A DNA stretch of 284 nucleotides from Escherichia coli (GTDB lineage Bacteria > Pseudomonadota > Gammaproteobacteria > Enterobacterales > Enterobacteriaceae), in assembly GCF_003334405.1 (NCBI RefSeq), contig NZ_QOWM01000070.1, one strand, 5' to 3'. A program made the translations under genes and the position numbers. Each line of letters starts with the position of its first letter. The first letter of the stretch is position 1. This document shows, piece by piece, positions 1-283 of this stretch. The notes beneath the pieces were generated by a model, which was given only the letters and a program-made list of their open reading frames with translations, had not been told where the DNA came from and did not search any database.

Positions 1-75
1 GGTCGTTAGCTCAGTTGGTAGAGCAGTTGACTTTTAATCAATTGGTCGCAGGTTCGAATCCTGCACGACCCACCA
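1..75 (+). tRNA. tRNA-Lys (anticodon UUU), 5'-partial: first G of the gene lies outside the window
   Basis: Seen in sequence: 1-75 is identical to 209-283 and matches the E. coli-type tRNA-Lys(UUU) sequence I recognise (GGGTCGTTAGCTCAGTTGGTAGAGCAGTTGACTTTTAATCAATTGGTCGCAGGTTCGAATCCTGCACGACCCACCA). Anticodon loop CUUUUAA at 31-37 with anticodon TTT at 33-35; T-loop TTCGAAT at 53-59 flanked by stem gcagg (48-52) / cctgc (60-64); acceptor 3' strand acgaccc (65-71), discriminator A (72), encoded CCA (73-75). The paralog (lysT/W/Y/Z/Q/V) cannot be assigned because the copies are identical. Confidence 0.96.
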
Positions 76-82
76 ATTTAAA
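76..82 (+). promoter_or_regulatory. AU-rich 3' trailer (ATTTAAA) immediately after CCA; candidate RNase E cleavage site
   Basis: Seen in sequence: atttaaa at 76-82, and the same a follows the second CCA at 284. Established knowledge: RNase E separates polycistronic tRNA precursors by cutting AU-rich single-stranded sequence a few nt downstream of CCA. The assignment to this site is inference. Confidence 0.45.
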
Positions 83-113
83 GGTGGTTACTGGTAGAGA
101 ACGTGAAGGATAA

Positions 114-129
114 CGTTGCGTTAGCAACG
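114..129 (+). other. Hairpin: 6-bp stem cgttgc / gcaacg with GUUA loop
   Basis: Seen in sequence: 114-119 cgttgc is the exact reverse complement of 124-129 gcaacg, with loop gtta at 120-123. An overlapping alternative is taacg (111-115) / cgtta (119-123). Not followed by a T-run, so not an intrinsic terminator. Confidence 0.5.
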
Positions 130-140
130 GCCCGAAGGGC
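130..140 (+). other. Short GC hairpin gccc-gaa-gggc
   Basis: Seen in sequence: gccc (130-133) pairs with gggc (137-140) around loop gaa (134-136). It abuts the previous hairpin and is not followed by a T-run. Confidence 0.4.
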
Positions 141-156
141 GAGACGAAGTCGAGTC

Positions 157-174
157 ATCCTGCACGACCCACCA
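157..174. repeat. Exact 18-nt copy of the tRNA-Lys 3' end (atcctgcacgacccacca) inside the spacer
   Basis: Seen in sequence: 157-174 is identical to 58-75 and 266-283, so the 18-mer occurs three times in direct orientation. The flanking bases differ (c at 156 versus a at 57), which bounds the repeat. Confidence 0.92.
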
Positions 175-207
175 TCCTGAATGATTAAGGCAGCATAATC
201 CCGCAAG

Positions 208-283
208 GGGTCGTTAGCTCAGTTGGTAGAGCAGTTGACTTTTAATCAATTGGTCGCAGGTTCGAATCCTGCACGACCCACCA
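208..283 (+). tRNA. tRNA-Lys (anticodon UUU), complete 76 nt with encoded CCA
   Basis: Seen in sequence: 208-283 is gggtcgttagctcagttggtagagcagttgacttttaatcaattggtcgcaggttcgaatcctgcacgacccacca. Acceptor 5' strand gggtcgt (208-214) pairs with acgaccc (273-279); anticodon loop cttttaa at 239-245 with anticodon TTT at 241-243; discriminator A at 280; CCA at 281-283. Identical to copy 1, so the paralog cannot be assigned. Confidence 0.97.

Follow-up and report, generated by a model that had tools for sequence, protein, structure and literature searches.

[quoted passage not shown] An earlier note had taken the spacer for the remains of a degraded tRNA gene or for a tRNA-like element retained for another role. 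The window was placed in the lysT operon of E. coli, a cluster of seven tRNA genes, where lysZ adjoins lysQ; a repeat begins at 76, directly after the lysZ CCA, with lysQ next on the same strand (Table 1). The only gene found by ARAGORN in the window was that at 208-283; lysZ at 1-75 is cut by the window edge.

Table 1. Features of the 284-nt window, with positions counted from its first nucleotide.
Feature	Positions	Strand	Remarks
lysZ, tRNA-Lys(UUU) gene, first G missing (cut at window edge)	1-75	+	Identical to 209-283; Rfam tRNA, 71.1 bits
Variable 5' linker of the repeat, holding the 83-99 block and A/U-rich AUUUAAA (76-82)	76-101	+	48% mean pairwise identity among 26 copies
GGTGG motif, complementary to CCACC at 169-173 and at the lysZ end (70-74)	83-87	+	RNA and DNA minimum-energy folds
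Closing stem P1, 5' strand, CGTGAAGGAT	102-111	+	Predicted to pair with 157-166; nearly invariant in 26 copies
Core hairpin CGTTGC-GTTA-GCAACG	114-129	+	99.2% of cells paired in 41 Lys and Arg copies; loop variable
Mini-hairpin GCCC-GAA-GGGC with C-GNA-G triloop	130-140	+	98.8% of cells paired; invariant save A/T in loop
Variable, covarying hairpin GA / GAC-GAA-GTC / GA, possible tandem G·A flank	141-153	+	
Copy of the last 18 nt of tRNA-Lys, ATCCTGCACGACCCACCA	157-174	+	18/18 match, ending at exactly 18 nt; T-loop A59-U60, T-stem 3' strand, acceptor 3' strand, A73 and CCA
P1 3' strand, within the 18-nt copy	157-166	+	
Tail, within the 18-nt copy	167-174	+	
lysQ 5' leader, outside the repeat	175-207	+	Between the repeat CCA and the mature lysQ 5' end
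lysQ, tRNA-Lys(UUU) gene	208-283	+	ARAGORN; Rfam tRNA, 79.2 bits

Open reading frames of 25-42 aa overlap the spacer, but none was kept as a reading frame across copies because the copies differ in length by 1, 2 or 3 nt, in loops and in the last hairpin. No promoter-like site was noted in a promoter scan of the window, and a terminator scan returned one weak minus-strand match, which was merely the core hairpin. The leader at 175-207 also appeared behind other repeat subtypes, in E. coli genomes without the rest of this spacer.

Assignment of the spacer to the RtT family

Comparison with Rfam indicated that 76-174 is a tRNA-linked repeat (TLR) of the RtT RNA family in a short form, a reading to which we give a probability of about 0.85. 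Positions 7-174 scored 60 bits against the RtT RNA model (RF00391, gathering score 45), the 5' third of this alignment being borrowed from the lysZ T-arm. The spacer alone gave a 5'-truncated match of 43.4 bits (E = 8.8e-8) to model positions 47-130, which was 1.6 bits under the gathering score because the spacer is a short form; its homology to RtT is significant. Both this E value and the architecture in common with tyrT RtT speak against a similarity of composition alone. RtT matches of 46.7-60 bits followed all five of the tRNA-Lys genes of the operon, and the four copies at the tyrT locus scored 133-137 bits. In the classical tyrT RtT, the first core hairpin is separated from the 5' strand of the closing stem by approximately 40 nt that the short form lacks, a segment that was also present in long-form Lys copies from other genera. 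The exact limits of this deletion were ambiguous, as the gap was set differently in MAFFT and by-eye alignments.

In RefSeq, the fifth copy of the operon was the only one annotated as RtT sRNA while the four short-form intergenic copies were unannotated, which constitutes an annotation gap. The annotated rttR of K-12 is attributed to a tyrT repeat unit. The copy after lysQ was flanked by an exact 54-nt direct repeat composed of the 18-mer plus a terminator.

The identity of this spacer as a TLR was already known, and the family is a catalogued one. Repeats that end in a copy of a tRNA tail were reportedly described at tyrT by Egan and Landy in 1978, and the RtT RNA, or rttR, of the E. coli tyrT-tyrV operon is also referred to Bösl and Kersten (1991). 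The catalogue for K-12 is that of Rudd (1999), as described by Stenum et al. 2021, and contains 22 TLRs at ten loci, each of which repeats the last 18-19 bp of the tRNA or rRNA upstream of it without a difference; in the strain table of the latter report, the five TLRs (T, W, Y, Z and Q) of the lysT operon are deleted along with lysW/Y/Z/Q and valT/Z (PMC8144298). With such repeats described in 1978, catalogued in 1999, modelled in Rfam and deleted together in a published strain, the assignment carries little weight as a discovery.

Conservation and predicted fold of the repeat

The two parts of the spacer differed greatly in conservation. Among 26 copies from the genera sampled, mean pairwise identity was 92.6% for the unit at 102-174, as opposed to the low value for the linker in Table 1. 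The exact match of 157-174 to the tRNA 3' end, CCA included, had been recognized in the earlier note and was borne out by alignment to tRNA-Lys. This 18-mer was identical to that of its own upstream tRNA in 103 of 121 family members from other loci and, when the upstream tRNA was a variant, the repeat contained the matching variant in 12 of 14 cases. Recombination or gene conversion within the array probably keeps the 18-mer identical to the tRNA.

The claim that the acceptor and T stems of the spacer cannot pair was mistaken as worded, as the partner of the 3' copy is 102-111 rather than 83-99. In the predicted fold, 9 of 10 positions of 102-111 and 157-166 were paired, with one A·G mismatch. 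The 5' strand reads as tRNA positions 5-7 (CGT), a T-stem 5' strand of GAAGG (GCAGG in tRNA-Lys) and AT, its first eight nucleotides (102-109) corresponding to positions 5-7 plus 49-53 with one change. The P1 strand was also specific for tRNA type. In counts of Watson-Crick pairs in a fixed register, cognate strands gave 8.3-9.3 pairs of 10 for Lys, Tyr and Arg and 8.0 for Ser (n = 2), whereas the same 5' strands with non-cognate 3' strands gave 2-7.3. A free-register search for the best duplex between 5' regions and tRNA 3' strands, with G:U allowed, did not discriminate because purine-rich strands pair promiscuously, and was replaced by the fixed register. In the model, P1 is a helix equivalent to the T-stem plus the three innermost acceptor pairs, the position of the T-loop is taken by three small hairpins, one of which covaries, and a CCA-ended tail of 8 nt is left free.

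The core hairpin aligned to RtT model positions of about 66-85. The mini-hairpin that follows was part of the pattern by which the family was retrieved from other genera and showed no covariation because its stem is invariant. The middle pair of the hairpin at 141-153 was GC in 23 copies, CG in 9, AU in 7, UA in 1 and UG in 1, with 100% of cells paired. Both a tandem GA motif and, independently, significant covariation in RtT have been reported in the CaCoFold preprint. Over the whole fold, 85.3% of cells were paired across copies compared with 27-44% for slid partners, and the covariation score of 0.112 exceeded those of slid versions (0.049 or less) and was reached by none of 500 shuffles. 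Covariation was present in the closing stem and the last hairpin. In the closing stem, descent from a tRNA T-arm is a confounding factor. The fold energy was -34.3 kcal/mol, with similar z scores for RNA (-2.67) and DNA (-3.23), and G:U exceeded A:C combinations in stems by 11 to 5 cells, which are too few for a choice between RNA-level and DNA-level folding.

Two subtypes of the linker were noted, one with a GGTGG(A)-loop hairpin and the other with a hairpin of TTTAACATC and GATGTTAA. The blocks on which the earlier note relied do exist at 83-99 as described, with GGTGGTTA matching GGTCGTTA at 7 of 8 positions and TGGTAGAG matching at 8 of 8 beyond a gap of 6 nt, but they were borderline against shuffles and absent from paralogues and orthologues. 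In the shuffle control proposed in that note, 34-58 of 1000 dinucleotide shuffles scored as well as 76-103 against the whole tRNA and 90-135 of 1000 as well as 76-156 (p about 0.03-0.13 for the blocks). Only 14 of 2000 shuffles were as good when the comparison was restricted to tRNA positions 1-30, a range chosen post hoc. In alignments to the 5' third of the tRNA, the window scored 22 and one Enterobacter copy 24, while other copies scored 8-16.5, at the level of the shuffle mean of 14 ± 2.5. Of the 26 distinct Lys copies of the short form, two, both from E. coli lysZ, contained TGGTAGAG and 12 contained GGTGG, while the GGTCG of the tRNA itself was absent from all. A comparison of orthologous spacers, also proposed in the note, indicated that the 3' 18-mer was kept and the 5' block was not. 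Positions 83-87 were paired with 169-173 in both the RNA and the DNA minimum-energy folds and may pair in the molecule, an interaction that covariation cannot test because CCACC is invariant.

Distribution of the core and origin of the repeat

In other genomes, 161 matches to the core were found, 115 of which had a tRNA gene on the same strand within 600 nt upstream, and in 95 at least the last 18 nt of that tRNA (Lys, Tyr, Arg, Pro or Ser) were repeated exactly. Many genera had the same core behind tRNA genes for Tyr, Arg, Pro and Ser and behind 5S rRNA genes. In Pseudocitrobacter and Siccibacter, the core hairpin and CCCGAAGGG appeared behind 5S rRNA in copies that ended in the 5S 3' end; in Citrobacter, Kosakonia and Phytobacter, a tRNA-Tyr-like sequence ran into the RtT core at the T-loop; and in Pectobacterium the core occurred as intergenic tandem repeats of 73-74 nt without a tRNA. 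Short forms linked to tRNA-Arg had a nearly complete helix of 7+5 bp (GCACCAG-GGAGG ... CCTCC-CGGATGC-ACCA). Contexts of the core accordingly comprised the T-loop position of five tRNA types, sites behind 5S rRNA, the tRNA-Tyr-like fusion and tRNA-free tandem repeats. Matches in Shinella, Streptomyces, Actinacidiphila, Archangiaceae, a Clostridia MAG, Rhizobiaceae and Minwuia lay in GC-rich, apparently coding DNA without a nearby tRNA and were taken to be chance matches. In a phage collection there were no phage copies, the matches being Salmonella chromosomal contigs and one unannotated 7-kb record only. Of 5426 complete E. coli genomes only 1996 contained the complete spacer, and this copy is therefore dispensable. 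Copy number varied among strains.

The exact 18-nt 3' end, the blocks at 83-99 and the resemblance of 102-111 to tRNA positions 5-7 plus the T-stem 5' strand are all features expected if a whole tRNA-Lys gene had decayed, with loss of its anticodon arm and survival of 83-99 as a relic of the acceptor and D-arm. Since the Tyr-like sequence of Citrobacter, Kosakonia and Phytobacter joins the RtT core at the T-loop, a fusion of a tRNA body with this core also exists. Against this origin, neither ARAGORN nor the Rfam tRNA covariance model, even at E<=10, gave a tRNA match in 76-207, and colinear homology to a tRNA body (acceptor 5' strand, D-arm and anticodon arm) was not found in the spacer. The earlier note mentioned the absence of an anticodon loop, and the spacer contains no counterpart of an anticodon arm. 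The proposed likeness to acceptor and D-arm was at chance level, lay in the variable part and was specific to E. coli lysZ, whereas a tRNA has no counterpart of the conserved 112-156, a segment common to Tyr-, Arg-, Pro-, Ser- and 5S-linked copies; moreover, neutral decay would not keep 102-174 so nearly identical across genera. Descent from a decayed tRNA-Lys gene is very improbable on these results and is regarded as largely refuted, a correction to a reading that looked plausible and was in all likelihood wrong. The repeat is tRNA-derived at its edges only. The other suggestion of the earlier note, a tRNA-like element kept for another role, fared better in that 102-111 and the 18-mer rebuild a helix of the T-stem and inner acceptor together with a CCA tail, but it did not recognize the element as a TLR of the RtT family.

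Integration of an element at the T-loop site of a tRNA gene duplicates the segment from T-loop to CCA, which is the segment spanned by the 18-nt copy, and this copy closely follows the tRNA as a direct repeat. That it is an attR-like scar of an integrase-type element once located in the T-loop is nevertheless scarcely credible, as the two copies are only 81 nt apart with no genes between them and no integrase or island, the same layout follows every Lys gene of the operon as well as 5S rRNA genes, the intervening sequence is a conserved structured core rather than arm-type sites, and no phage matches were found. Better placed, though still rather unlikely, is the view of the repeat as DNA that is selfish or a by-product and has no RNA function, a small structured module spread or copied to the 3' ends of stable-RNA genes and retained at them by unequal crossing-over and gene conversion. 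Consistent with this are the multiple and at times tandem copies, the differences in copy number among E. coli strains, the tRNA-free tandem repeats of Pectobacterium, the exact 54-nt direct repeat around the copy after lysQ, the construction of a strain without TLRs (see below) and the fact that the 18-mer follows its neighbouring tRNA even at unpaired positions, which fits homogenization at the DNA level. However, near-invariance of 102-174 beside so variable a linker needs purifying selection or else very frequent homogenization between species, which is unlikely, while the covariation of one hairpin points to a selected fold, discrete RNAs have been reported from relatives and phage copies are lacking. 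In a related and more doubtful version, the core of about 45 nt, composed of the CGTTGC..GCAACG hairpin, CCCGNAGGG and the variable hairpin, would be an independent structured module able to colonize stable-RNA genes at their 3' ends; TLRs would then be small non-autonomous mobile or templated-copy elements, with the tail a footprint of insertion or copying instead of a mimic, and the C-GNA-G mini-hairpins would act at the level of single-stranded DNA or RNA.

Proposed processing of the spacer RNA and comparison with known systems

According to a study of the lysT operon, the spacer is transcribed within an operon precursor of ~1100 nt, spacer probes detect the full-length precursor, in the case of probes 10 and 11 in RNase P mutants, and RNase P cleaves at mature 5' ends; removal of long 3' trailers by RNase II and PNPase is proposed by its authors (PMC4176162). 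Release of a discrete RNA has been reported for tyrT. RtT members by Asn and Lys tRNA genes of Actinobacillus pleuropneumoniae have been detected on Northern blots (PMC4986893). Stenum et al. describe TLRs as without known function, the original claim of a role in the stringent response having been withdrawn, and a strain without all 22 TLRs was built (PMC8144298), so TLRs are not essential. The core of tRNA-operon TLRs is nearly as conserved as the adjoining tRNAs.

Because the repeat presents the 3' end of a tRNA together with a helix, the spacer RNA may be treated like tRNA by tRNA-processing enzymes. Taken jointly, the steps of this proposal are given clearly less than an even chance. RNase P would cut at 207/208, trimming would halt at or near the CCA at 174, and endonuclease cleavage or exonuclease trimming would take place within the A/U-rich 76-82. 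The spacer would be freed, or last for a while, as a structured, CCA-ended RNA of ~93-99 nt like the tyrT RtT. Any role would most likely be in cis, in the order, rate or protection of precursor processing or as a mimic of the tRNA 3' end. Action of the excised spacer in trans, as an sRNA sponge or regulator like 3'ETS-leuZ or by titration of a protein like RrA/B/F, has precedents in functional tRNA-spacer fragments and in the binding of Hfq and CsrA by rRNA-operon TLRs in vitro (PMC8144298), and the core is conserved. It is judged highly unlikely, as the 19 tRNA-operon TLRs scored below 0.01 in the CsrA-binder predictor used by Stenum et al. (PMC8144298), the majority of the conserved bases lie within hairpins with no obvious single-stranded seed, and a literature search for the lysZ-lysQ spacer found no report of a discrete or stable RNA species, partner, target or Hfq data. 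The relation of short to long forms, the type-matched closing stem and the tRNA-free cores may help to frame functional experiments.

With respect to the TLRs of K-12 (Rudd 1999; PMC8144298), no difference was noted and the relation is one of membership rather than analogy, the five lysT-operon TLRs being among the 22. RrA, RrB and RrF, the TLRs behind 5S rRNA in rrnA, rrnB and rrnD, belong to the same family as the window copy. The copy after lysQ lies between two identical terminators, like the T1-TLR-T2 arrangement of rrn operons (PMC8144298), while the window copy lies between two tRNA genes, unlike terminator-flanked RrA/RrB/RrF. The latter contain GGA motifs, and in vitro they bind both Hfq and CsrA, whereas tRNA-operon TLRs are predicted not to bind CsrA (PMC8144298). 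Like the spacer RNA proposed here, 3'ETS-leuZ (Lalaouna et al. 2015, cited in PMC8144298) is a by-product of tRNA-operon processing that might persist as RNA, but it pairs as a single strand with sRNAs on Hfq and has no sequence relationship to the spacer.

The window copy resembles the tyrT-tyrV RtT/rttR (RF00391) in the CGTTGC..GCAACG hairpin, CCCGAAGGG, the variable hairpin and GAGTNATCC, as well as in its same-strand site just 3' of a tRNA gene, a tRNA 3'-end copy with CCA and a closing stem. The two differ in that the 3' end and partner strand of the window copy are of tRNA-Lys type rather than tRNA-Tyr type and in that the window copy is without a tpr-like ORF and without the inverted T-arm copy, GGTTCGA segment and first GCGNAGC mini-hairpin (~40 nt). 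Absence of this part of the 5' half accounts for alignment to model positions 47-130 only and for the lower score of the spacer compared with the Tyr copies. The acceptor/T-arm minihelix of tRNA, a model substrate of RNase P and of the CCA-adding enzyme, likewise consists of a helix of T-stem and acceptor pairs followed by NCCA. In contrast with the minihelix, the Lys copy has a 45-nt insert in place of the 7-nt T-loop and one A·G mismatch in the T-stem and, because it keeps only three acceptor pairs, has 8 unpaired nt at its 3' end where the minihelix has 4.

Identity of the spacer element

The 284 bases of the window were 100% identical to E. coli chromosome sequence, and its two tRNA-Lys copies, lysZ and lysQ, were identical to each other. 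An Rfam scan of the window found RtT RNA (RF00391) above its gathering score (60 versus 45 bits), with the alignment ending exactly at 174; part of this alignment was borrowed from the T-arm of lysZ, and the spacer alone scored 43.4 bits (E=8.8e-8) over model positions 47-130 only. RtT matches were found downstream of all five tRNA-Lys genes of the operon, of which only the last repeat is annotated in RefSeq ("RtT sRNA"). At tyrT-tyrV, where RtT was defined, four copies scored 133-137 bits and each finished with the 3'-terminal 19 nt of tRNA-Tyr. Such elements are called tRNA-linked repeats (TLRs), and PMC8144298 traces their first observation to Egan and Landy (1978). Its strain table includes a Δ22 TLR strain, the first deletion of which comprised lysW/Y/Z/Q, valT/Z and five TLRs; as these five bear the letters T, W, Y, Z and Q, the element of the window has been individually catalogued. 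We put the probability that it belongs to the TLR/RtT family above 0.9. It is a short-form variant, without RefSeq annotation, of an already known repeat family; the finding as such is of low interest, and the window does not make TLR function newly testable.

When a single genome from each species was searched with the core pattern GCAACGRCCCGWAGGGYGA, at least 120 loci were covered and at least 161 core matches obtained. At least 115 of these lay no more than 600 nt downstream of a tRNA on the same strand, and at least 95 were terminated by an exact copy of 18 nt or more of the 3' end of that tRNA. Among the matches listed, linked tRNAs were Lys(UUU), Tyr(GUA), Arg(ACG), Pro(UGG/CGG) and Ser(UGA), and hosts included Enterobacterales, Gilliamella and Photobacterium. 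Repeats behind 5S rRNA ended in the 5S 3' end, and since the core hairpin and CCCGAAGGG recurred in two of these (L048 and L088), the core is common to 5S-linked and tRNA-linked TLRs. In 12 of the 14 cases in which a species had a variant tRNA tail, its repeat shared the variant, also at positions unpaired in the repeat fold, which points to homogenisation with the neighbouring gene at the DNA level. Among 5426 complete E. coli genomes, only 1996 had at least 80% of spacer 76-207; in many of the rest only 157-207, comprising the tail copy and the lysQ leader, was present and followed a repeat of another subtype. Strains therefore differ in how many Lys-gene/repeat units the operon has and in how these are ordered.

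Core matches outside Enterobacterales, in Marinobacterium (L016), Amphritea (L076) and Alloalcanivorax (L044), may be diverged family members. At the first two, tRNA-Arg(CCG) preceded the core by 121 nt, and an exact tail copy was looked for and not found; at the third there was no tRNA call upstream and the core match was cut by the locus end. Window positions 82-168 also matched Rfam RF02902 (Aggregatibacter sRNA 22) weakly, at 14 bits and E about 1. The consensus of that family has the same AACGUUG..CAACGgCcC..GgGcGAg motif, and the family may represent relatives of the RtT core in Pasteurellaceae.

Coordinates of features in the window and at labelled loci
Feature	Position	Sequence, strand or basis
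End of first tRNA-Lys gene	1-75	First G cut off; ARAGORN and Rfam tRNA model
Spacer between tRNA-Lys genes	76-207	132 nt
Possible pairing	83-87 with 169-173	GGTGG with CCACC
Closing stem	102-111 with 157-166	CGTGAAGGAT with ATCCTGCACG; 9/10 paired
Hairpin	114-129	CGTTGC-GTTA-GCAACG
Hairpin	130-140	GCCC-GAA-GGGC
Hairpin	143-151	GAC-GAA-GTC
Second tRNA-Lys gene	208-283	ARAGORN and Rfam tRNA model
5S-linked core, Pseudocitrobacter	L048:~300-440	Same core hairpin and CCCGAAGGG; end AACTGCCAGGCATCAAAT = 5S 3' end
5S-linked core, Siccibacter	L088:~200-360	As L048
Tandem cores, Pectobacterium peruviense	L120:725-919	
Tandem cores, P. zantedeschiae	L046:980-1187	
Tandem cores	L045, L121	
tRNA-Tyr-like/core fusion	L006, core at oriented position 9367	-
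tRNA-Tyr-like/core fusion	L020:1025-1165	-
tRNA-Tyr-like/core fusion	L050, 4645	-
tRNA-Tyr-like/core fusion	L068:131-275	-
54-nt direct repeat, E. coli	L001:2766-2819, 2922-2975	

Long and short forms of the repeat

The family comprised two forms. In the long form (all Tyr copies, Lys copies of Pantoea, Erwinia, Rosenbergiella and others, and Pro and Ser copies), a 5' strand complementary to the tRNA tail was followed by a hairpin of inverted and direct T-stem/T-loop copies (..GAACCTGC/GCAGGTTCGA..), a GCGNAGC mini-hairpin and the core. The short form was that of the window, of most Arg copies and of the remaining Lys copies located between genes in E. coli and its relatives; here the 5' strand was joined directly to the core, giving an element about 40 nt shorter. 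For 41 short forms linked to Lys or Arg, 85.3% of cells were paired, versus 27-44% with slid partners. Their covariation score of 0.112, which none of 500 shuffles reached, compared with at most 0.049 for the slid versions; at one pair of the last hairpin GC, CG, AU, UA and UG were all seen. An independent analysis (CaCoFold preprint) likewise reported significant RtT covariation, including a tandem GA motif.

The closing stem was matched to tRNA type. With their cognate tails, Lys, Tyr and Arg copies formed 8.3-9.3 of 10 Watson-Crick pairs, the two Ser copies 8.0 and the five Pro copies only 6.0-7.25; non-cognate tails gave 2-7.3. The 5' strand of the stem corresponds to tRNA positions 5-7 followed by the 5' strand of the T-stem, and in Arg copies the acceptor strand was almost complete, so that the element looks like an acceptor/T-arm minihelix with the core in place of the T-loop. 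This build is why the earlier note was wrong that the T and acceptor stems cannot pair, and why its alternative label, a tRNA-like element, came nearer the mark than a decayed tRNA gene.

The single A·G mismatch in the closing stem (107/161 region, A106 opposite G162) was kept in 24 of 26 short-form Lys copies and was U·G in one. It makes the 5' strand GAAGG, as in the T-stem of tRNA-Tyr, where tRNA-Lys has GCAGG, and hints that the Lys short form may have descended from a Tyr-type repeat by tail swap.

Alternative readings and a possible mechanism

The spacer had been read in the earlier note as a decayed tRNA-Lys gene or a tRNA-like element; the observation behind this was partly confirmed and the interpretation partly supported. 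Positions 157-174 were indeed identical to the 18 nt at the 3' end of tRNA-Lys, the match going no further, and the 5' alignment of GGTGGTTA-C-TGGTAGAG to GGTCGTTA-GCTCAGT-TGGTAGAG of tRNA-Lys was as described, but the 5' blocks were weak against dinucleotide-preserving shuffles and absent from most related copies. Equal scores against the tRNA were reached by 34-58 of 1000 shuffles for 76-103 and by 90-135 of 1000 for 76-156; the figure fell to 14 of 2000 with the tRNA limited to its first 30 nt, a limit chosen after the fact. Among 26 distinct spacers of the same kind (Escherichia, Citrobacter, Pluralibacter, Pseudescherichia, Phytobacter, Enterobacter and others), TGGTAGAG was present solely in two E. 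coli lysZ copies and GGTCG in none, and similarity of the other copies to the tRNA 5' end equalled the shuffle mean except in one Enterobacter copy (score 24). The 5' block lies inside the variable part, mean pairwise identity being 48% for 76-101 versus 92.6% for 102-174. Decay of a whole tRNA-Lys gene is largely excluded. A selfish element or by-product of recombination is a serious alternative, although awkward to reconcile with a near-invariant 102-174 beside a 48%-identical linker. A trans-acting sponge would be an improbable reading, and an integrase scar is unlikely.

The spacer is transcribed within a precursor of about 1100 nt, because spacer probes detect a species of that size, and RNase P cuts the mature 5' ends starting from the transcript 3' end, as described in the available text of PMC4176162. 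Discrete RNAs come from relatives, namely rttR of K-12 and, on Northern blots of Actinobacillus pleuropneumoniae, RtT members adjoining Asn and Lys tRNA genes (PMC4986893). With its tRNA-identical tail and helix, the repeat could have its 3' end taken for that of a tRNA by trimming enzymes, and a CCA-ended structured RNA of some 93-99 nt might be released or persist; the effect, if any, would most likely be on precursor processing or protection. This mechanism is tentative, and we hold the odds to be somewhat against it. The available text of PMC4176162 reports no discrete product of the lysZ-lysQ spacer and proposes that trailers are removed by exonucleases. Counted against the processing mechanism were the construction of a strain without any TLR, the statement that TLRs have no known function (both PMC8144298) and the limited distribution of the complete spacer (1996/5426).

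Unusual arrangements of the core

In Pectobacterium, the RtT core (CAACGTTGC-GCA-GCAACGG, CCCGAAGGG, TGA and a hairpin) occurred as 73-74-nt tandem intergenic repeats of 2.6-2.8 copies, downstream of protein-coding genes and with neither a nearby tRNA nor a tRNA-tail copy; these were not recognised in an Rfam scan at E<=0.001. In Citrobacter, Kosakonia and Phytobacter, the first gene past the tyrT promoter was tRNA-Tyr-like and fused at the T-loop to an RtT core (junction ..AAGGTTCGA|CTCGAGCG..), and its 3' end was decayed. Its GCA anticodon and D-loop changes were shared across genera, neither ARAGORN nor the tRNA model made a call, and the two loci scanned (L020 and L068) had RtT scores of 69-79 bits. 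The fusion looks to have arisen by deletion between two GGTTCGA segments, with the product conserved.

Just downstream of the lysQ gene of the window, a long-form repeat was bracketed by an exact 54-nt direct repeat consisting of the tRNA-Lys 18-mer and a Rho-independent terminator, ATGTAAAAAAGCGCCCTAAAGGCGCTTTTTTGCTAT. The layout around this copy, gene-T1-TLR-T2, resembles the one described for rrnA, rrnB and rrnD.
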